Source: Methylococcales bacterium | Lineage (GTDB): Bacteria > Pseudomonadota > Gammaproteobacteria > Methylococcales > UBA1147 | Assembly: GCA_041748915.1 (NCBI GenBank) | Contig: JBGTCG010000275.1 | Location: 1,551-65,550 of the forward strand | DNA length: 64,000 nucleotides | Direction of reading: 5' to 3' | Part shown: positions 10,484-23,182 of the stretch, piece after piece | Layout of the letters: each line of letters begins with the position of its first letter | Numbering within the stretch: the stretch's first letter is position 1 | The notes under the pieces: model-generated | What the model saw: the letters and a program-made list of their open reading frames with translations, nothing else | What the model was told of the DNA's origin: nothing | The model's database searches: none | Translations under genes and position numbers: made by a program

Positions 10484-12238
10484 TCAAGGTCCTGGCAACA
10501 GCTTCCTGCGTTGCAACGCGTTAACACCGAAATAGATGGCAAATCCGATTGCAATGCCGGTCAGCAGGCGTATTATCAGCGAACCATCTTCCTGATTGCC
10601 TGGCGATGGATTGGGCACGGGGCTCTCGGCCGGCGCCAAGCCCAAACGCTTTTCCGCATTGGCGATCCCGGTATCCGCAGCGACCGCGACGGGTTGGGGA
10701 ATCAGCCCCTGGGGCATACCCAATGAGTTATTCGTGTCCCAGTCCTGCCAGACCGGGAACCGGCGTTGCCAGAATTCCTTGGTGAAAAACGGCGCCAGAT
10801 CGCGGCCATGCAATGTCACCGACCCATCCGGTTGCATATAATCTTTGTACACCACCAGACTTAGGCTGCCGCCTTCCCCCATGCCGTCCGTGGTGAACGC
10901 TTTTTCCGTATGATCGTGGAACATCCAGACGCCGGCTCCGAAACTGTGCAATCCGTCGTCCACAGTGTCGATCTCCAAATCCAGTCGCTGGGCCGGAGAC
11001 ATCGCATGCACGTCACGCGTAATTCTTCCGGGGGCGCCGTTATCGACGCCGTCATAATGTGTGGCCGTTGGCTTATGGCCATGTATATGCAGCGCAAGCG
11101 GTTCGGTATGGCCGTTCAGAATCCGCAATTTGATTTTCTGATTTTTCTCGGCAACGATTAAGGACTCGCGCAAGGTATAAGGGAAGGCCCGGCCGTTGAG
11201 CATGAAATAGTCATCGTCTGCATCTGTGGAATCATACTCCTGATTGATTGCCCAGCTGATCAGGCGGGGATCGTTATATTTTTGAATCAACCGATGCAAT
11301 TCCTTGTCGGCCGACTGGTAGTGCATATCGTATTCGCGAACATATTGTTCCCGCACCGCAACCGATGGATGGCGGACTTGTCCGGCGCCGATATTGAATG
11401 TCTGAACCCAGTTGTTCGGACGGTTTTCTTCGACGACCAGCAATCCCTGAAGCCCCATCGGGATGTGAACCTGGGGCTGGACGTGGCAGTGATAATACAT
11501 CGATCCTGCTTGTCTGGGCTTGAAGGTATAGGTCTTCGTCTCTCCAGGCATCACATCCATTGCGCTGGTCTGACCGGTGCCGTCATTGCCGACGCCGCCG
11601 TGGTCCATGTACGGATGATCGACTCCGTGAAGGTGAATCGAATGCGGCATGTAATGGCTGTTCTCGAGAATCAGGTGCACGGTGTCCCCTTGTTCGACCC
11701 GGATTACCGGCGATGGAACGCGCAAGGTGGGATTGGCTTGAATGCTTGCGAAGCCGTTGGTTGACATATCCCGGGTCTTCGGCGCGAATACCCAGAAGCC
11801 GGGTTGAACCCCCGGCGCGATGTCGTAAGTCGGCACGAGCCCGGCGAAATCGGGTGAGCGGCCATTGAGTTCCATGATTTCCAACCGAATCGTGATGTTA
11901 TCGGCATCGCCGTCCCCATCGACATCATCCTTTTTTATAATCGCATCAGTACTGATGTTGGTATCCATCAGGGTATCCATCGAAATATTATTGGTACCCT
12001 TTACGAAAAGCGCAACCTCGGCCGGATTGTCGGGAGAACAGACTGGCGACTCCTGGATGTCGATCCCTTCGATCACCTGAGCCTTGCGCCACTCGCCCAG
12101 GGTTACTTGATTGCAAAAAGGTTCAGGTTTACCCAATATTATGCGTTCCGAGTCAGGCAGTCCTGTAGCCGCTTCAACGACCGGCAACAGGATAAAAAGT
12201 AATATCAAACAACAGCGATGGACGGAGATATAGGGCAT
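10484..12238 (-). CDS. Multicopper oxidase with the T1 site in the first cupredoxin domain, an Asp-rich N-terminal extension and a C-terminal TM anchor
   Basis: Copper motifs occur in the order HSIHLHG, YYHCHVQPQVHIPMGL, LHIHGHK, WMFHDH. The start at ATG 12238 (MPYISVHRCCLILLFILLPVVEA, a signal peptide) is preceded by GAGGGA. The C-terminus LIIRLLTGIAIGFAIYFGVNAL is hydrophobic. Confidence 0.8.
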   Translation of the reverse strand: MPYISVHRCCLILLFILLPVVEAATGLPDSERIILGKPEPFCNQVTLGEWRKAQVIEGIDIQESPVCSPDNPAEVALFVKGTNNISMDTLMDTNISTDAIIKKDDVDGDGDADNITIRLEIMELNGRSPDFAGLVPTYDIAPGVQPGFWVFAPKTRDMSTNGFASIQANPTLRVPSPVIRVEQGDTVHLILENSHYMPHSIHLHGVDHPYMDHGGVGNDGTGQTSAMDVMPGETKTYTFKPRQAGSMYYHCHVQPQVHIPMGLQGLLVVEENRPNNWVQTFNIGAGQVRHPSVAVREQYVREYDMHYQSADKELHRLIQKYNDPRLISWAINQEYDSTDADDDYFMLNGRAFPYTLRESLIVAEKNQKIKLRILNGHTEPLALHIHGHKPTATHYDGVDNGAPGRITRDVHAMSPAQRLDLEIDTVDDGLHSFGAGVWMFHDHTEKAFTTDGMGEGGSLSLVVYKDYMQPDGSVTLHGRDLAPFFTKEFWQRRFPVWQDWDTNNSLGMPQGLIPQPVAVAADTGIANAEKRLGLAPAESPVPNPSPGNQEDGSLIIRLLTGIAIGFAIYFGVNALQRRKLLPGP

Positions 12239-12728
12239 GGAATTCCCTCGGGTAAGAAATGGAAAGAATAGAATCAGCGGCGCGCGCAAATTGGTCTAAG
12301 TCCTCATGAAAAGTTCCCCGGACCGGAGCACTCCGGTCAAGGAATTTCAGGTCACGAATGCCGAATCGAACCCGGAAGGCTGCCGCGAAATTTTTCGGTT
12401 GCGGCCCTGCCGCCGCGGACCCCGGTAGCGACATTAGCGCTTGCCTCAAGGAGACCAATGGATTGGGCTTTTTTAACGCCTTTGACGTTATTATACCCGT
12501 GTTGAACCGCACGCGCACTCGGGTGAGGGCAACGAAATTCAAAAGCCGTTTGGCACAACTCGAAAAGAATAATATACTGCCTCAACTTCGAACTCCCGAA
12601 CGTCCGCTGATCGCACATCCAACTTCGATGCCGGGGTGTTCGAAGAGTTGCTGGACGGTAAATGTAATCGACCTTCAATTTTGTGATCGATAAACCGGGC
12701 TTTCAAGATTGTCCAAGGAGATCGAATA

Positions 12729-13097
12729 ATGACGCGGCGGATTACCTTTCTGGCGACCATCCTTTTTCTGACTCTCGCCGTCAGTTCTACCGATATTCAT
12801 GCGGTGAAAGGCGTATTGACTGGCCAGGTCGTCAAGACCCTGGTGGCGGCGAATGCCTTTGGCCAGTGCATGGCATTACTGGATCGAGAAATCAGTACCG
12901 CCAGCAATGCCCCGAACTGTCCGGGTGGATGGGTCACCTTCAGTTGTAGCGGTGTTTTCGCGTCGAAGGATATTGCCTATCGCATGTTGGATCAGGCGCA
13001 GTTGGCAAAAGCGTTGGGACGCCCGGTCGTTATCGTAGTTGACGATACCAAGAAACACAACGGAGTTTGCTTTGCGAATCGAATCGAAGTGGAGTAA
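12729..13097 (+). CDS. Small secreted hypothetical protein (122 aa, 4 Cys)
   Basis: An AAGGAG ribosome-binding site lies 8 nt upstream. Signal peptide MTRRITFLATILFLTLAVSSTDIHA. No homology was recognised. Confidence 0.5.
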   Translation: MTRRITFLATILFLTLAVSSTDIHAVKGVLTGQVVKTLVAANAFGQCMALLDREISTASNAPNCPGGWVTFSCSGVFASKDIAYRMLDQAQLAKALGRPVVIVVDDTKKHNGVCFANRIEVE

Positions 13098-15131: not shown

Positions 15132-16307
15132 TCATGGAGCCGAACCGGAAGCACGTCTGAATGTTGCGAGCCGGCGCGATTTGCCGGTCAGCACCATCAC
15201 GCACCACCGCAAGCCGAGATTCCGGATCGTCAGGCCCAAACCAACTCCAAGCATCGCCGCATAAACCCACCAGTATCCGACCTGAAGCGGCACGGCGCCA
15301 TTGGTCAACCAACTTTGCGCGATACTCTGCAGATTCTTGTATAGAAGATAAACCAGAAACGCCAGTAGAATATTTCCGTAAACGCCGGTTCTTGGAGCCG
15401 CTGACGATAACGGTACTGCAAGCATTGCAAGCACGATCATGCCCAGCGGAATCGACAAGCGTTTGTGCAATTCCGTTATCTTCTGCGGATCCACGTTATC
15501 GAAGAGCTCCGCGGTCGGCATGGCTTCTCGGGTCAGCTCCAGCAATTGGTTGCTCGGCGCCCCGATCGCAACCGCATATTCCTCGAATTCCGTAATTTCA
15601 TAATCCGCCATAGCGTGTTTACCCCGGTAGCGCTGGCCGTCGATCAGGACAATGAACCGCACCCCGTCAATGATCCGGATCAAACCGCGCCGCGACAGGA
15701 TGATACTCAGCTGATTTTCCTTGCGTTCCTGAACAAAGATATTCGTCATCTGGCTATCCGACGAAATCTTCTCCGCATAGAACACGATATCACCGCGACT
15801 GTATTCATTGAATCGGCCCTCGACCAGCAAGCGGGCGTCGGCATTCTCTTTTTCATAGAGCAAAACAATCGCGGTCTGCTTCATCGCCCAGGGATTCAAT
15901 TCAAAGGACAATCCGCTCGCAATCAACGCCAGGGGCACGACGGGCAAAAGAATATACCGGGTCAGTCGCAGCAACCCGATTCCACCCGAACCGAGCGCCG
16001 ACATTTCATTATCCCGGTACATCCTGCCGAGTACAATCAGCGCCGCCGCGAATAATGCGGAAGGCATCAATTGCACGGCCACGGAGACCAATTTGAAACC
16101 GAACAGCAGAAAAATGGTTTCATTAGAAATTTCGCCATCGAATGCCTGGTTCAGGAGCTGAGCAAATTGCTTGCTCATCAAAATCAGTAACAGAACCGTG
16201 AGGACGGCCAGAAACGTTCTCGCCAGATCGAACGATATCAAACGCGCCACGACGGAAAAGATCGCAGAAGACCGCTCCGGTATCGTGTCGGCAGGGTAAG
16301 TCGTCAT
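15132..16307 (-). CDS. lptF: LPS export ABC transporter permease LptF
   Basis: Polytopic YjgP/YjgQ-type permease paired with lptG. The start is uncertain (ATG 16307 or GTG 16250). Confidence 0.85.
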   Translation of the reverse strand: MTTYPADTIPERSSAIFSVVARLISFDLARTFLAVLTVLLLILMSKQFAQLLNQAFDGEISNETIFLLFGFKLVSVAVQLMPSALFAAALIVLGRMYRDNEMSALGSGGIGLLRLTRYILLPVVPLALIASGLSFELNPWAMKQTAIVLLYEKENADARLLVEGRFNEYSRGDIVFYAEKISSDSQMTNIFVQERKENQLSIILSRRGLIRIIDGVRFIVLIDGQRYRGKHAMADYEITEFEEYAVAIGAPSNQLLELTREAMPTAELFDNVDPQKITELHKRLSIPLGMIVLAMLAVPLSSAAPRTGVYGNILLAFLVYLLYKNLQSIAQSWLTNGAVPLQVGYWWVYAAMLGVGLGLTIRNLGLRWCVMVLTGKSRRLATFRRASGSAP

Positions 16308-16724
16308 GTTAGAAGATTCGTATCTTGCAGTCCTAAAATCGAAGGTCGGCCAACAGCGGCCGGGCGCGTATTAGTACCCGCGGTTGTCGATGTTCAGAGT
16401 TCGGCAATGAACAATCGGCTCAGCTTTTGTATGGCGATCGACAATTTATCCTTACTATTTCGGGTTTCGGCGTGATGCAATTGCAGGTCGGCTTTACGTC
16501 CGGTGGATGGCTCCGGTCAACAACAACCTTGACGCAATAGCGAAGGTTGCAGCAGAATGAAAGCGCCAATTCGGATCCCGGCCGAGAGTTTATAGCGGCG
16601 GTGTTTTTCGATCGTCAGTCTCTATGTGAGTGTAAGAGGCGGGGGAAGATCCGGAGTTCAGCCATTTTTCCATTTATTCTTCACAATAACAAATAAAGCG
16701 GGACAACCGCGATTCGGGGGACTC

Positions 16725-17400
16725 ATGGCTAATAAGATCGCCTATTTTGTCGACATCGTGCTCGTTATCGATTCTACCGGCAGCATGCGGCCGGTTATTA
16801 ACCGCGTTAAATTACAAGCCCTCGAGTTTCACGGCAAGATTCTCGCGCGCATGGAAGAAAAGAAAAAAACGATTGACCGCCTGCGGATGCGAGTGGTTGC
16901 TTTTCGGGATTTCTGGGCGGACAGCGAACCGATCCGGGAAATGCCGGAATTTATCGATATGGAGAGCGCGCCGGAAAAGTTCGATGCCTTCGTCAATGAA
17001 TTGTGGGCGGACGGAGGCGGCGATGAACCCGAAAGGGGGCTTGAGGCGCTGGCGCTCGCGATCCAGTCGCCGTGGTATAAGAATGCCCGCTCCATCCAAG
17101 AAACGCAATATCATCGTCGTCTGGACCGATGCGAGTGCGCATCCTTTGGAGAAAGCGCAGGAGTCGCCGCCAAAAAATTACCCGGATCCCATGCCGGCCA
17201 GTCTCGATGAATTAACCGATGCCTGGGAGGAAATGCCGGTTGCAAGCCGGCGATTGTTGTTGTATGCGCCGGACCAGACGCCGTGGAACGAGATCGGTTA
17301 CAACTGGGAGCAGACGATTTATTATCCCTCAATCGCCGGGGAAGGCCTCGCGGAACACGATATGGATACGATTCTCGAAGCCATCGCCAACAGCATTTGA
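16725..17400 (+). pseudogene. vWA (von Willebrand factor A, TerY-like) protein, reading frame broken by a +1 shift at 17085-17097 (real or an assembly indel)
   Basis: ATG 16725 follows GGGGGA. MIDAS motif DIVLVIDSTGSM, then ...ADGGGDEPERGLEALALAIQSPWYKN in frame 1. Frame +1 continues KKRNIIVVWTDASAHPLEK...ILEAIANSI to 17400. The two ORFs are 16626-17210 and 16747-17400. Confidence 0.75.
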
Positions 17401-17533
17401 CCGGGTTCGCCTCCGCCGCCCGCGATGGACGCCGAGGGAATGATGTTGGGCCGAAATTTTCCGGGCCGACGAGCTCGCTTCGAGTCCGATTCGAAGTTCT
17501 TGTCGGGATTAACCTATAAACCTGTCTGCCGCG

Positions 17534-18796
17534 ATGTCGGGTCCTGAGATCTGTAGCCGGCACCCGCTCAACGATTCCGCGTGCTTAGCCGATCCGGCCC
17601 TGGTTTTCCGTTCCGCGGCCGCGCGAGATCACAACGGCAAGATGGATCTGAACCGCTGCGAGGACGCGGTACCGGTTCTGAAGCATTTGTCCGCAGAACG
17701 GATATTGCTGGGCGTCGCCGACGGCTTGGGAGGCTATGCGCAGGGATTTGACAATTTCAGCGGCGGCCAGATTGCATCCGCGACCGCGATGAAGGCCGCA
17801 GTAAACTATTTCAGCCATTCTTTTTCGGAACTCAAACCCGATGCCGAAGCGCTGACCAATACCATATTCAAAAAACTCAGACACCTCGCGGAAACCCGAC
17901 TGGCGCCGAGCCGGTTGCAGGGCGCACTCGGCCGCCACAAACTCGCAACGACCTTGGCGCTCGTCGTTTTGGAAGCACAACCGGAACGTTTTAGACGAAA
18001 AATCCAATGCTTCTGGATTGGTGATTCAAGAATCTATTTTTTTGATCGGGACGGCTTACATCAATTGAGCCGTGACGATAGTCTGACCCGAGCCGACGCA
18101 TTCAATTCGGTTTTCGATCCGTCACCGATGTCCCAGTTTCTTGCGGCGAGCATGGAGCGGGATTGGCGGATTCATTTCCGTGAATTTTTTCTCGACAGTC
18201 CCGGTGTGGTGATCGCGTGTACTGACGGATGTTATTCGGAGTGGCGAAAGCCCTGGCATTATGAAGCCGCTTTGCAGCAGGCGCTGGAGCACAGCGAATC
18301 GTGGCCCGGCTGGATCGACAGGATTCGGATGCGGCTCGAGCCGATGCTGTCGGATGACGCTTCAATGGCCGCCTTTCCGATCAATCTCTCAGGTTTCAAC
18401 GAATTCAAGAAGCTCCGGACCGAATCCAACGGCATTCTGGAACGGTGTATGGCAGCGGAACGGGAAGGTGTGCTAACGGCAACAGAAATCTGGTCTTCGA
18501 TGTACAAACCGGTGTATGAAAGGACACCGGCCGTGGACCCTTGCCCGGATTCAAAGACGAGACCCGATGAGTGTATGAACGATCCGGCATCGAATCCAGA
18601 ATCCGCCGCTCCGATAACCGCCGCAGTGAAAAATTTTGCTGAACCGGCGCGGCGCCGGCCGCGGCTTCTTGCCCGCCTTCATTCGGCCTGGTCGCGGTGG
18701 GGGTTAGCCTGGTTTGCCGGTTTCGTTTGCGGACTTCCGTTGGGCGAGACCGTGATCGCGTGGCTGGATTTAATTTGGCATTGGTTTAAATCCTGA
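17534..18796 (+). CDS. PP2C-family Ser/Thr protein phosphatase with a hydrophobic C-terminal tail
   Basis: PP2C motifs ILLGVADGLGGYAQG, WIGDSRIYFFD and VVIACTDGCY. C-terminal tail WGLAWFAGFVCGLPLGETVIAWLDLIWHWF. The start is uncertain (17534 or 17642). Confidence 0.8.
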   Translation: MSGPEICSRHPLNDSACLADPALVFRSAAARDHNGKMDLNRCEDAVPVLKHLSAERILLGVADGLGGYAQGFDNFSGGQIASATAMKAAVNYFSHSFSELKPDAEALTNTIFKKLRHLAETRLAPSRLQGALGRHKLATTLALVVLEAQPERFRRKIQCFWIGDSRIYFFDRDGLHQLSRDDSLTRADAFNSVFDPSPMSQFLAASMERDWRIHFREFFLDSPGVVIACTDGCYSEWRKPWHYEAALQQALEHSESWPGWIDRIRMRLEPMLSDDASMAAFPINLSGFNEFKKLRTESNGILERCMAAEREGVLTATEIWSSMYKPVYERTPAVDPCPDSKTRPDECMNDPASNPESAAPITAAVKNFAEPARRRPRLLARLHSAWSRWGLAWFAGFVCGLPLGETVIAWLDLIWHWFKS

Positions 18797-19920
18797 TGGC
18801 TGTCCGCCTGACTTCGGGCAGTCGCTTGCGCGGCTACACACTGACCACGGACATGACTTCGTCCGATGCCGGGACATCGATGTGGGCTTTTGCCGAACAG
18901 GATGGATTCGAATGTTTTTTAAAGTGTTATCTGACGCCGGTTTTCCCGGATCGGGACAGCCCGGGGTCGGAACGCTCGAAAGCCCGCAAACGCGAGCGCT
19001 GCGAGGCCTTCGAAGCGCGCATGAACCGGGTCGAAACGGTCCTTGGAGAATGCGGACCGGAGGCTTTCCTCGTGCGCAGAATCGACTTTTTCCGCCACGA
19101 CGGGAGTTATTACAAGATCACCAAAAAGATATATGCGGCTCGGTCCGGCGTATCCACATTGCCGGCGCGGAAACAATTACTGATTTTGCTGTCGGCGGCC
19201 TACTCGGTCAGAGCCCTGCATGAACGTTCCAGTTTTATCCATGCCGACATTAAACCCGAGAATTTCATGATTCAACGGACGGGCGCAGGAATGATCGCCA
19301 ATTTGATCGATTTCGATGCGGGATTTTTTACCGGCCAACCGCCTCCCGTGGAGGACCAGATCGGCGACCAGCGCTATTGGGCGCCGGAACGGATCGCCTG
19401 GATGACCCACGGGGGCAGGCTGCAACACGGCCGAAAGGCCGCCGAGCTGCGGCAATCGCTCGATGTGTTTTCGCTCGGACTGACCTTCTGCGAATATCTG
19501 GCCGGCACATTCCCGCAGGATCCTCCGGCTTATGCCTATGCCGGCGAAGCGGTGCTGAACGATATCCCGTTGACGCTACCCGAGCCCTTGCAGGCCGGCC
19601 TGAAACCGATCATGACGTTGATCCAGACGATGTTACACAGGAATGCGGCTCGCCGCCCGAGCGCCGCCACGGTGCACGAGCAATTGCGGGCCTTCAACCG
19701 GCGGCATTTTGTTTCCGAAAGCACTTATCTCAAGCTCGCGGCTTCATGGAAACGAAGTCTGGTCGCAGGCGGCCAATCCCTGCGTGAGCGGTGGGCGTCG
19801 CGCACCACCAAAGCGGTTTATCGATCCGCGTCGGAATTGCAGATCCGCGGCTTAAAGACCGGTGAACCGGCCAAGGTTTCGCCGTTCGTCAAACGTTCGT
19901 GGTTCGGGACCAAGGCATGA
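18796..19920 (+). CDS. Hanks-type Ser/Thr protein kinase (atypical N-lobe)
   Basis: Catalytic loop HADIKPENFMI, DFD(AG) in place of DFG, YWAPE, DVFSLG, and a late RRPS. There is no canonical GxGxxG loop. The start overlaps the PP2C stop (TGATG). Confidence 0.8.
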   Translation: MAVRLTSGSRLRGYTLTTDMTSSDAGTSMWAFAEQDGFECFLKCYLTPVFPDRDSPGSERSKARKRERCEAFEARMNRVETVLGECGPEAFLVRRIDFFRHDGSYYKITKKIYAARSGVSTLPARKQLLILLSAAYSVRALHERSSFIHADIKPENFMIQRTGAGMIANLIDFDAGFFTGQPPPVEDQIGDQRYWAPERIAWMTHGGRLQHGRKAAELRQSLDVFSLGLTFCEYLAGTFPQDPPAYAYAGEAVLNDIPLTLPEPLQAGLKPIMTLIQTMLHRNAARRPSAATVHEQLRAFNRRHFVSESTYLKLAASWKRSLVAGGQSLRERWASRTTKAVYRSASELQIRGLKTGEPAKVSPFVKRSWFGTKA

Positions 19921-20273
19921 AATTCTATCTTTGCTGCTGCGCCGTTTGCACCTGGAAAGGCAATAAACCGCACCGGGACGGGCAATGTCCGGTGTGCGGA
20001 AACGCTCTCGACATACAGATCCGTGAACGCCGTCTTGCGTCCAGCCCCGCGACTAAACTAGTCCTGTCGGGCCTGTCAACGGACCCGAAAATCATGCCGT
20101 CATGGTTCGGTTTGTCGATCTTGAAGGACTACAAAATTTCTGGAAAGGCATTGAGTATCCTGCTTAGGGCCGGGCGACCGATCGGCGACAGCCTCATCGA
20201 ATCGGTTTTGAAAATACGCTTTTCGAATTATGCTCTGCACCGGCTGGCCATCCGTTTCCGGGATCGCCGCTGA
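19917..20273 (+). CDS. Small Cys4 zinc-ribbon protein (118 aa), translationally coupled to the kinase gene
   Basis: Its ATG overlaps the kinase stop (ATGA at 19917-19920). The N-terminus MKFYLCCCAVCTWKGNKPHRDGQCPVCGNAL carries CxxC...CxxC. The rest is unrecognised. Confidence 0.5.
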   Translation: MKFYLCCCAVCTWKGNKPHRDGQCPVCGNALDIQIRERRLASSPATKLVLSGLSTDPKIMPSWFGLSILKDYKISGKALSILLRAGRPIGDSLIESVLKIRFSNYALHRLAIRFRDRR

Positions 20274-20407
20274 TCCGCGATCCCGAACAATCGGAAGGCT
20301 TACCGCCCGGTCAACAGGGCTAACTGTAGCCAGCCGTTTTTTGCATTTCCCGCCGCTTGCGGTTACATTGCGGCCGGTAGGTCTACGATCCCGTTCCAAT
20401 CCGAGTT

Positions 20408-21700
20408 ATGACTAAAGCCACTGATTCAGAACAACTGTTCGAAATCGCCAACCGATTTATTCCCGGAGGCGTGAATTCTCCGGTCCGGGCGTTCAAGGGG
20501 GTCGGCGGAACGCCGATCTTCATCGACTTCGCAGAAGGCGCATGGATTGTCGATTCGAGCGGAAAGCGATACATCGATTATGTGGGTTCCTGGGGGCCGA
20601 TGATTTTGGGTCACGCGCATCCGGAAGTACTGAAAACCGTCCACCGCTATGTCGACAAGGGGCTAAGCTTCGGCGCCCCGACCGAGATCGAAACCCGGAT
20701 GGCCGAAAAATTGTGTGAACTGGTTCCGTCGCTGGAACTGGTTCGAATGGTGAACTCCGGCACGGAAGCCACCATGAGCGCGATCCGGCTGGCGCGGGGA
20801 TTCACCGGACGCGATAAAATCGTGAAGTTCGAAGGCTGTTATCACGGTCATTCCGATGCCCTGCTCGTAAAAGCCGGCTCCGGCGCCCTGACCCTTGGCG
20901 TCCCGAGCTCTCCGGGCGTTCCCGCGGCGATGGCCGAACAAACGTTGACTCTGAAATTCAACGATACCGAATCGTTGTACGATGCATTTTCGGATCTAGG
21001 CAGCCAGATTGCCTGCGTGATCGTCGAACCGGTGGCCGGGAATATGAACTGTATTCCGCCGCGGCCCGGTTTTCTGGAAGCTTTGCGGGACCTTTGCTCC
21101 CTTTCGGGCAGCCTTTTGATCTTCGATGAAGTCATGACCGGTTTCCGTGTCGCCAAAGGAGGCGCGCAGGAATATTACGGGGTAACTCCGGATCTGACTA
21201 CACTCGGCAAGATTATCGGAGGCGGCATGCCGGTCGGCGCGTTCGGCGGCAAAACAGAAATCATGCGACAGATCGCCCCCCTCGGCCCGGTTTACCAGGC
21301 CGGCACTCTATCCGGAAATCCGATCGCGATGGCCGCCGGATTGAAGACCCTTGAACTGGTGTCGGTTCCAGGCTTTTACGACACCTTAAATGCCATGACC
21401 CAAACGCTGGCCCGAGGCTTGGTGGAGAGGGCCGGCGCCACGGGCATTCCGCTGGTAGCCAACCAGGTCGGCGGCATGTTCGGAGTTTTCTTCAGCGAGG
21501 TCGATTCAGTTACGAATTTTGACGCCGTCATGAACTGCAACCTGGAGCGTTTCCGGCGATTTTTCCACGGTCTTTTGGACCAAGGGGTCTATTTCGCTCC
21601 TTCGGCCTTTGAAGCCGGTTTTGTTTCCGCCGCGCATACTCGTGAAATTATCGATGCCACACTCGATGCTGCGGAAAAAGTCTTTGAATTGCTCGACTAA
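20408..21700 (+). CDS. hemL: Glutamate-1-semialdehyde 2,1-aminomutase
   Basis: 430 aa. [20 protein letters not shown], and a class-III aminotransferase over its full length. Confidence 0.95.
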
Positions 21701-21765: not shown

Positions 21766-23182
21766 ATGAGCGAAACCATCGAACTGACGCCGTTCTGGTC
21801 AGGTGTTCTGGCTGGAGCGGTCGCGATTTTTGTTGTATCCGCGGTGATCATCTGGCTGTTGGCGGCCCGGCATCGAAGAACCGTCACGGCGATCAATCGC
21901 CAGGCGGAACAGTGGCTCGCCGACAGGCATCAGCTCGCTACCGGTTTCGCGGTCGCGGAACAGAAAATCGCCGATTTGCAAAGGCTCGAACTGAAGATCG
22001 CGGACGAAGAAGTAATTATCGCGGCGCTGCGGGACGAAAACGTCCGGCTGAAATCCAGCTTGGCCGAAGTGACGGCGCGGATCGAAGAGGAACGCATCAA
22101 AGCCACCGAAAAGCTCGAAGTGATCAAAAGTACCGAGCAGCAAATGATTCATCAGTTCGAATCCTTGAGCTCAAAAATCCTCGAAGAAAAAAGCAAAACG
22201 TTTACGGAACAGAATCAACTGAATCTCGACCGGCTACTTTCACCATTGCGCGACCAGCTCGGGGAATTTCGGAGAAAAGTCGATGATGTCTATGTCGCGG
22301 ACAGTAACGACCGTGCCTCGCTGAGGGAGGCGATTCGTATTTTGAACCTCGAAAATCAAAGAATCAGCCTCGAAGCGAACAATGGTCCGCGCCTTGAAGG
22401 GAGATAAAAAAGTGCGGGGCGCATGGGGGGAACTGGTGCTGGATAAAGTTCTGGAACAATCCGGTTTGCGCAAAGGGATCGAATACCACAGCCAGGGAGG
22501 TTTCCGGGATCACGAAAACCGTCTGCTGAAACCCGATGTAGTCGTCCATCTCCCGGAGGGCAAGGATATCATCATCGACTCCAAGGTTTCACTGCTTGCT
22601 TATGAAGCCTATTCTTCCGCCGAAAGCGACGAACTCCGGGTACAGGCCCTGGCCGAACATATCCAGGCGATTCGCCTACACATCAAAACCTTGAGCGAGA
22701 AGGATTATTCCAGCGTTCGGGGACTCCGGTCGCTGGATTTTGTACTGATGTTCATGCCCATCGAAACCGCCTTTCTGCTGGCATTCGAACATGACGTATC
22801 CCTTTTTTCCGAGGCCTTCCAGCGGAACATCATAATCGTGACGCCGACCACCTTGCTTGCAACGCTAAGAACCATCGAAAATATCTGGCGTTACGAAAGG
22901 CAGAACGAAAACGCGCGGATTATCGCGGATAAGGCGGCGAATCTTTATGACAAAATCCGCGGTTTTGTCGAAGAATTCGAAAAACTCGGCGTCCAGATCT
23001 CAACCGTCCAGGGCACCTATGACGGCGCGCTGAACAAGCTTAGCCAGGGTAAAGGAAATCTGTTACGGCAGGCGAGCAGTTTCATTGATCTCGGCGTCAA
23101 AGTGAAAAAAACGCTTTCTAAATCCATTCTGGACCAGACGGCCGGTGATGAGTCAGGAAACTACGAGGGAAATTCAGGATAG
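21766..23182 (+). pseudogene. rmuC: DNA recombination protein RmuC, reading frame broken near 22378-22386
   Basis: ORF 21766-22407 holds the TM segment plus coiled coil and ends ...NQRISLEANNGPRLEGR*. The +1 frame (ORF 22382-23182) continues VRALKGDKKVRGAWGELVLDKVLEQSGLRKGIEY, the conserved RmuC core (E. coli: EAQNLTRALKGDNKTQGNWGE). Confidence 0.8.

Follow-up and report, generated by a model that had tools for sequence, protein, structure and literature searches.

A four-gene vWA, PP2C phosphatase, Ser/Thr kinase and zinc-ribbon cassette of TerY-P-like architecture, most likely disabled by a frameshift in a Methylococcales genome

We analysed a stretch of 64,000 nucleotides from a Methylococcales bacterium (GTDB lineage Gammaproteobacteria; Methylococcales; UBA1147; assembly GCA_041748915.1, contig JBGTCG010000275.1, positions 1,551 to 65,550 of the forward strand), called the window below. 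At 16725-20273 it contained a cassette of four plus-strand genes, recognised from the open reading frame (ORF) listing and by direct reading, which encode in this order a von Willebrand factor A (vWA) protein, a PP2C phosphatase, a Ser/Thr kinase and a zinc-ribbon protein. Our preferred reading, held with moderate confidence, is that the cassette is a four-gene operon of a widespread and horizontally scattered family with the architecture of the TerY-P triad, that it would work as a reversible phospho-switch, and that the copy in this genome is disabled.

The four same-strand genes, their coordinates and their motifs agreed with the initial annotation, and a hidden Markov model (HMM) check, with scores past every gathering cut-off, placed the first three proteins in the Pfam families VWA_4, PP2C_2 and Pkinase, as their earlier assignment had supposed. 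The phosphatase and kinase genes overlap in TGATG at 18794-18798, and the kinase and fourth genes in ATGA at 19917-19920; these overlaps, from which operon coupling had been claimed, were read directly in the sequence, and the coupling holds. The cassette is located between lptF (15132-16307, minus strand) and a gene at 20408-21700 which we take to be hemL from the reading of its sequence.

Judged from its sequence, the vWA gene (16725-17400, plus strand) is most likely a pseudogene and the cassette disabled or decaying in this genome, since a full-length vWA component cannot be made. Frame 0 (16725-17210) holds the start of the metal ion-dependent adhesion site (MIDAS), DIVLVIDSTGSM (DxTxS), and the family motif GGGDEPE, whereas VVWTDASAH and the conserved C-terminus, up to the normal stop at 17400, are in frame +1; the gene is thus frameshifted, and no uninterrupted frame spans the DxSxS motif and the distal Asp of TDA. 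The intact MIDAS start reported earlier is indeed present, but the frame is lost before the last MIDAS Asp, as the annotation had hinted in speaking of a repaired vWA. The lesion is a 4-nt tandem duplication, TCCA-TCCA, forming TCCATCCA at 17091-17098 (plus strand), and the frame shifts after residue 123. In a DNA alignment, all five intact orthologues (L099, L001, L004, L005 and L018) showed a 4-column gap opposite the lesion; the gene is 676 nt long here versus 672 nt in the orthologues, whose products are uniformly 223 aa. A programmed frameshift was rejected because the five orthologues are all unshifted. Frame 0 yields a truncated protein of 161 aa that lacks the conserved TDA-motif Asp and the C-terminal half; about 100 residues are removed, holding invariant Trp, Arg and Pro positions, and this exact truncated product is recorded in both NCBI and Logan sources. 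The other three cassette genes keep their full length and their active-site motifs.

When the vWA sequence was repaired, its best Pfam family was VWA_4 (PF25106; 45.7 bits against a gathering cut-off of 27, E = 6.7e-12), and the match to VWA (PF00092) reached 13.7 bits, under its cut-off. In 88 vWAs of the family, residues D16, T18, S20, G98-G99, E103 and D134 were 96-100% conserved and D100 90%.

The second gene (17534-18796, plus strand) encodes a PP2C-family Ser/Thr phosphatase of 420 aa matching PP2C_2 (PF13672) with 55.3 bits against a gathering cut-off of 24 (E = 8.4e-15). The motifs VADGLGG, GDSRIY, CTDG and SDDAS are present, the metal-binding motifs are intact (ED44, D63-G64, D164, D231-G232 and D274-D275), and the ED, DGxGG, GDS, TDG and DD residues were 96-100% conserved in 64 family members. 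Among solved structures it is nearest to PP2C phosphatases of bacteria, for example 2j82. After a variable linker the protein ends in a hydrophobic, Trp-rich stretch (about residues 388-420) that is conserved in the clade. The hydrophobic tail described earlier is therefore real, but the membrane tether read into it is marginal in this copy, whose best 15-residue Kyte-Doolittle mean is 1.55, with no 19-residue window at or above 1.6; the tail, below the transmembrane threshold here, may give peripheral membrane association.

The third gene (18796-19920, plus strand) encodes a Hanks-type Ser/Thr kinase of 374 aa and of the non-RD type (HAD), matching Pkinase (PF00069) with 61.0 bits against a gathering cut-off of 31.7 (E = 1.6e-16). 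It contains HADIKPEN, DFD, YWAPE and DVFSLG, and K43, D151, K153, N156, D172, the APE (P197-E198) and R287 are intact and 98-100% conserved in 65 relatives. With its beta-3 Lys, D-x-K-x-x-N, DFG Asp and APE it is predicted to be an active Hanks kinase; a canonical Gly-rich loop was not evident in the window copy. That catalytic and MIDAS residues are conserved at 96-100% argues that the family is under selection as an enzymatic unit.

The fourth gene (19917-20273, plus strand) encodes a small zinc-ribbon protein of 118 aa with an N-terminal knuckle pair, CxCxxC-x7-H-x4-CxxC, followed by a basic RxRR stretch, an SGLSxDxK motif and an amphipathic helical C-terminus. In an alignment of 19 homologues, C6, C8, C11, H19, C24, C27, S51, G52, L53, S54, D56 and K58 were invariant. 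This type of protein had 19 relatives among 5.8 billion proteins, all of the same clade; Pfam, NCBIfam and PADLOC gave no family for it, and the NCBIfam matches were all generic and below threshold. An AF2 model built on the 19 homologues (pLDDT 58, pTM 0.29) was too poor for a fold search. That the Cys module is here a separate small protein, as had been claimed, is well supported, and it contrasts with the single 483-aa polypeptide P0016 (L019:9808-11385, Methylococcaceae UBA1147), in which kinase and zinc ribbon are fused. The P0016 cluster stands for 22 member sequences, and from this natural fusion we argue that the kinase and the zinc-ribbon protein act together.

In the word-indexed set of 5.8 billion proteins, the window kinase had 38 relatives, about 20 of them close. 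These close relatives are all from Methylococcaceae or other gammaproteobacterial metagenome bins, and their contigs carry the same four genes, with a vWA intact at 223 aa. The gene order is shared by at least 10 independent contigs of relatives, which is more than chance would give. More distant kinases (28-38% identity) are found in vWA-PP2C-kinase operons with other partners. By scanning one genome per GTDB species with a pattern from the vWA alignment, we found at least 423 loci encoding this vWA type among the species representatives, and the loci spanned Methylococcaceae, Cytophagales, Cyanobacteria, Actinomycetota, Clostridia, Bacteroidales, Verrucomicrobiota, Chloroflexota and two plasmids. 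When 1.84 billion representatives were searched exhaustively by HMMER, the N-terminal half of the vWA matched 434 clusters at 50% identity (E<=1e-10). Co-occurrence was assessed with jackhmmer on all ORFs of the best 79 of the at least 423 loci, and vWA, PP2C and kinase were found together in about 62 of these 79. The commonest order is vWA-PP2C-kinase, with PP2C-kinase-vWA in some Actinomycetota and Clostridia.

Some members of the vWA family stand apart from the other components. In Cytophagales, Raineya, Thermonema and Microscillaceae (L021-L027, L036, L037, L043 and L064), VWA_4 homologues of about 50% identity had no detectable PP2C or kinase nearby, and some of them are close to genes for a TPR-histidine kinase and a sigma-54 response regulator; the triad is therefore not an obligatory setting for the vWA family. 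Several tandem vWA domains were also found in one long protein, as in P0123 (1549 aa, 7 stretches), P0183 (1125 aa, 5 stretches), P0121 and P0122.

A fourth gene starting with a zinc ribbon is a general feature of the family. The ORF right after the kinase begins with a CxxC-x(n)-CxxC ribbon in 36 of 62 GTDB loci, versus 2.9% of background ORFs, and these ribbons have weak Pfam matches to RanBP-type, Zn_Ribbon_1 and DZR. The domain behind the ribbon varies: FGE-sulfatase (L020:10931-11947), three S1 domains (L031:11117-11953), leucine-rich repeats (LRR; L079:6469-8202 and, with multiple transmembrane segments, L089:6942-8240) and PASTA (L087:10952-12676), all in the post-kinase gene; other C-termini are a coiled coil or nothing recognisable. 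A transmembrane segment follows the ribbon in 14 of 31 fourth-gene proteins. In the Bacteroidota loci L032, L040, L046, L061, L063, L072, L073 and L077, a DUF4407 protein of about 470-590 aa is conserved one gene past the zinc-ribbon gene, possibly as a lineage-specific fifth component.

A short motif recurs in the kinase tails. The C-terminal tail of the window kinase is disordered and basic and carries SASELQIRGLK; family tails are of low complexity with one or two copies of a motif such as LRGSL, LRGKGL, KLRGTLI or RLRINL. The strict pattern [RKG][LIVM][RK][GI][STKNR][LGM] was present in 33 of 64 kinase tails and in 0.8% of control segments; a looser expression with 26% background was discarded. 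The SGLSxDxK of the zinc-ribbon protein is a second copy of the kinase-tail motif, and the form repeated in the two proteins is h-x-h-[RS]-G-L-[KS]. Across the window clade, the kinase tail reads SAS-x-L-x-V-RGLK and the zinc-ribbon protein has an invariant K-V-x-L-SGLS-x-D-x-K. The window copies are IRGLK in the kinase tail (19840-19920) and LSGLSTD in the zinc-ribbon protein (20050-20090). The tail peptides are SASELQIRGLKTGE and KLVLSGLSTDPK. The fusion P0016 has both copies, one on each side of the ribbon. Some Clostridial triad kinases end instead in F-x-P-A-G-D-L.

As far as gene neighbourhoods tell, the cassette is accessory and variable in position, because its neighbours differ among relatives. 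At L101, whose LptF is 76% identical to that of the window, the canonical pepA adjoins lptF and there is no cassette. In the metagenome-assembled genome (MAG) GCA_022616595 (L001), lptF and the cassette are on separate contigs with different neighbours, and at L004 and L005 the cassette is in yet other gene contexts. At L099 (LptF 72% identical), by contrast, the cassette does lie beside lptF-lptG and divergent from it, and its vWA gene is intact. A comparison of this kind, to tell presence from absence, had been proposed initially. Beyond lptG, a multicopper-oxidase gene and a 122-aa ORF without a Pfam family are syntenic between the window (10484-13097) and L099 (6544-9252), which speaks for vertical descent of the entire lptFG-cassette neighbourhood within that sub-lineage. 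A DedA/VTT-domain membrane protein is encoded 0.6-1.5 kb downstream of the cassette at L001 (10089-10682) and L004 (9114-9707), in otherwise different contexts, and is absent from the corresponding position of the window.

The view of the cassette as an inserted accessory module stood as regards its variable position, but no sign of a recent insertion was found. GC content and GC content at third codon positions of the cassette (0.55-0.69) are within the host range (0.607 +/- 0.04), so that the comparison of 16.3-20.4 kb with the flanks gave no compositional anomaly. At the cassette borders we found no meaningful direct or inverted repeats and no integrase, tRNA or mobility genes.

Among the 132 proteins immediately flanking the cassette in relatives, about 10% matched defence models (a raw share, with no control set), including AbiLi/ii, DrmA, AriA, LmuA/B, SduA, RT-protease and PDC candidates. 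This share is suggestive of a link with conflict systems. On plasmids, the cassette was found next to a resolvase, IS1 and a methyltransferase. A phage origin was considered and rejected: 2.9 million viral contigs gave just four weak matches, and the only other match was to a 12-kb 'Bacteriophage sp.' record without annotation. That record, from human faeces (MT836186.1:2094-2777), encodes a full-length VWA_4 homologue (42% identity), and its viral nature is uncertain. Two flanking proteins of VWA_4 triad loci matched Pfam HSP70, and in E. coli K-12 the HSP70-family gene yegD adjoins yegI (L015:1-1027); a recurring association of triads with an Hsp70-like protein is possible.

Anantharaman, Iyer and Aravind reportedly defined the TerY-P triad by its architecture in 2012, and the cassette, with vWA, PP2C and Ser/Thr kinase as one unit, has that architecture. 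TerY-P consists of TerY (a vWA protein), a PP2C and the kinase STK (PMC4978471). As PMC7699616 and PMC11090510 report from Gao et al. (2020), TerY-P has been named as an anti-phage system and acts against T7-like phages, and for this reason the earlier statement that experiments had defined no function for it no longer holds. The stand-alone TerY-P kinase carries an OB fold, and that of CoCoNuT systems a C-terminal zinc ribbon (PMC11090510). Like the Gao system, the cassette has a core of vWA/MIDAS, PP2C and Hanks kinase in one operon which can stand alone, and an extra nucleic-acid or metal-binding module associated with the kinase; the difference is that the Gao kinase has a C-terminal OB fold, whereas the cassette kinase has a disordered tail and a separate zinc-ribbon protein. 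The likeness is one of architecture, and the anti-phage activity belongs to the Gao system.

With the TerY-P of CoCoNuT and ter loci (Bell et al. 2024, PMC11090510) the cassette has vWA, PP2C and STK in common, and the zinc ribbon that ends their kinase may have its counterpart in the ribbon that is split off by a 4-nt overlap here and fused in P0016. In other respects they differ: those triads are accompanied by McrB/McrC, helicase, HEPN, WXG100/FtsK or ter genes, and the cassette by none of these; the vWA family is VWA_4, and neither the ribbon in its 4-nt overlap after the kinase nor any other cassette protein matched Pfam TerY_C. The E. coli yegL-pphC-(yegJ)-yegI locus likewise encodes a vWA protein and a PP2C together with a Ser/Thr kinase that is eukaryotic-like but atypical, and its kinase and phosphatase activities have been shown biochemically (bioRxiv 10.1101/819920, 10.1101/303594). 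However, BLASTP of the cassette proteins against YegL, PphC and YegI gave E values of 3.9, 0.12 and 0.35, that is, no detectable pairwise similarity; YegI, unlike the cassette kinase, is a 648-aa two-pass membrane protein in which several conserved kinase residues are missing, Pfam assigns YegL to VWA/VWA_2 instead of VWA_4, and the E. coli locus lacks a zinc-ribbon gene. On the sequence models, therefore, the cassette can be described as working like a TerY-P triad without being the TerY-P system, and what appears to be new is a distinct vWA family together with a split zinc-ribbon fourth component in a TerY-P-like architecture. The earlier label 'TerY-P-triad-like' holds for the architecture, but not for the vWA, which is not TerY-type by PADLOC, by Pfam TerY_C or by tblastn against plasmids.

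Among solved structures, the I-like domains of integrin beta-8 and beta-6 were the best matches of the family vWA profile (E about 1e-3, a weak match and a kinship at the level of the fold). They share with the family the DxSxS MIDAS, and one relative had a faint match to Pfam Integrin_beta; the profile match suggests a relationship of the MIDAS-ligand kind.

Under the preferred reading, the kinase would autophosphorylate or phosphorylate its zinc-ribbon partner and PP2C would reverse this, giving the reversible phospho-switch. The zinc-ribbon protein may dock on the kinase as adaptor or substrate, and in other lineages the ribbon would tether a variable sensor or anchor domain to it. The vWA protein would bind a partner through its MIDAS metal site, possibly an acidic or phosphorylated tail motif, and the output, by analogy with TerY-P, might be the sensing of stress or phage conflict. 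A bolder version, to which we give little credence, is a modular four-part signalling or immunity system in which the constant ribbon plugs swappable PASTA, LRR, FGE-sulfatase, S1 or transmembrane domains into a soluble kinase, the MIDAS protein, integrin-beta-like, recognises the repeated and phosphorylatable tail motif (LRG[S/T]L; SGLSxD in the clade) on the kinase and on its partner, and PP2C resets the switch. If true, bacteria would have their own version of metal-dependent, RGD-type ligand recognition, under the control of phosphorylation.

Several results weigh against the preferred reading. Viral contigs hardly ever carry the vWA family and plasmids seldom do, most of the other flanking genes in relatives are housekeeping genes, and around the cassette the window holds no effector, ter gene or restriction gene. 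The PADLOC TerY model had no match in the window vWA at E<=10 and matched E. coli YegL weakly, and the PADLOC STK_OB model matched the kinase weakly (E = 0.0019), over residues 126-178 of the catalytic core only. At the tail-motif site that would need phosphorylation, Lys or Asn is as frequent as Ser or Thr, which weakens the idea of a phospho-ligand. The vWA frameshift itself might be an assembly or read error, with a second frameshift 5 kb away in rmuC. Finally, the PASTA, LRR and FGE-sulfatase partner domains behind a transmembrane segment are typical of ordinary bacterial receptor kinases. They would fit an ordinary signalling module outside defence, a split receptor kinase in which the soluble kinase and PP2C are recruited to sensors through the zinc-ribbon adaptor and which would report the envelope or nutrient state, unrelated to phage or tellurite. 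We regard this as possible, though doubtful. The location beside lptFG in two genomes (the window and L099), the mostly housekeeping flanks, the host-like composition and the want of a PADLOC match in three of the four proteins agree with it. It accords poorly with a distribution that is patchy across phyla and a position that differs among close relatives, with the plasmid copies next to resolvase, IS1 and methyltransferase, with the share of about 10% defence genes among the neighbours, and with a cassette so dispensable that L101 lacks it at lptF and the window copy is broken; moreover, housekeeping pairs of eukaryotic-like Ser/Thr kinase and phosphatase normally have no vWA protein.

We think it unlikely that the cassette is intact and functional and that the frameshift is a sequencing or assembly artefact of a MAG. 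The contig is MAG-like, the closest relatives are all MAGs, and none of the three genes downstream is truncated or has lost a catalytic motif. In addition, rmuC (21766-23182, plus strand), 5 kb downstream, is split into the overlapping ORFs 21766-22407 and 22382-23182, the former covering Pfam RmuC positions 2-55 and the latter positions 57-290, with the break outside any homopolymer; the quality of the assembly therefore stays a possible cause of the vWA lesion, and the two frameshifts could be either both real pseudogenes or indel errors in assembly. Yet the gene is broken by a clean duplication of 4 nt in tandem and not by a homopolymer-length error, the truncated product appears identically in the NCBI and Logan sources, and the large essential genes dnaE, rho, lptF/G and hemL are uninterrupted in the window. 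Least credible to us is a bona fide canonical TerY-P, whether the tellurite-linked triad or the Gao anti-phage system. The same three enzyme and domain classes in one operon, the kinase-associated zinc ribbon known from CoCoNuT-linked TerY-P and the S1/OB domains of the L031 zinc-ribbon protein, which recall the Gao kinase-OB fusion, all point to it. Nevertheless, PADLOC gave 0 matches for the vWA and the PP2C, the window kinase has no OB fold, TerY_C is missing, the vWA belongs to VWA_4 and not to PF00092, and similarity to YegL, PphC and YegI is lacking by BLASTP. No ter genes were found near the cassette, in agreement with the initial annotation, and there were no McrBC/CoCoNuT or other DNA-processing genes near it in the window; tblastn of the vWA against 72,556 plasmids recovered no ter-plasmid TerY.

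The remaining features of the locus concern its borders. The divergent intergenic region between lptF (start 16307, minus strand) and the vWA ATG at 16725 covers 417 bp (16308-16724) and probably holds both divergent promoters. It contains no independent ORF of at least 60 aa, consistent with the ORF-free leader noted earlier, and matched no riboswitch or small-RNA family of Rfam at E<=1. A weak sigma-70-like site was present at 16529-16558 (plus strand), and promoter-like sites were no commoner than in shuffled sequences. A terminator-like hairpin, GGCTAACTGTAGCC, followed by a T-run is located at 20318-20341 (plus strand), 45 nt past the stop of the fourth gene and ahead of hemL (20408); it is a consensus match, and the count of such sites does not exceed that of shuffles. 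On one side the cassette is flanked by the Cu-oxidase gene, two small unknown ORFs, lptG and lptF, and on the other side by hemL, the split rmuC, rho and trxA. Pfam upheld the identities of LptF and LptG, as the description of these flanks as lipopolysaccharide-export genes had it.

Few immune or stress modules of bacteria work through Ser/Thr phosphorylation, and the triads of vWA, PP2C and kinase belong to these few. The family described here is missed by current defence-finder models. To label such a cassette a TerY-P defence system on architecture alone would be premature. The window copy is probably decaying and thus of low local importance, likely a relic, and the family is of more interest: its zinc-ribbon component, swappable domains, tail motif and natural fusions offer concrete handles in the form of docking partners and candidate phospho-sites.

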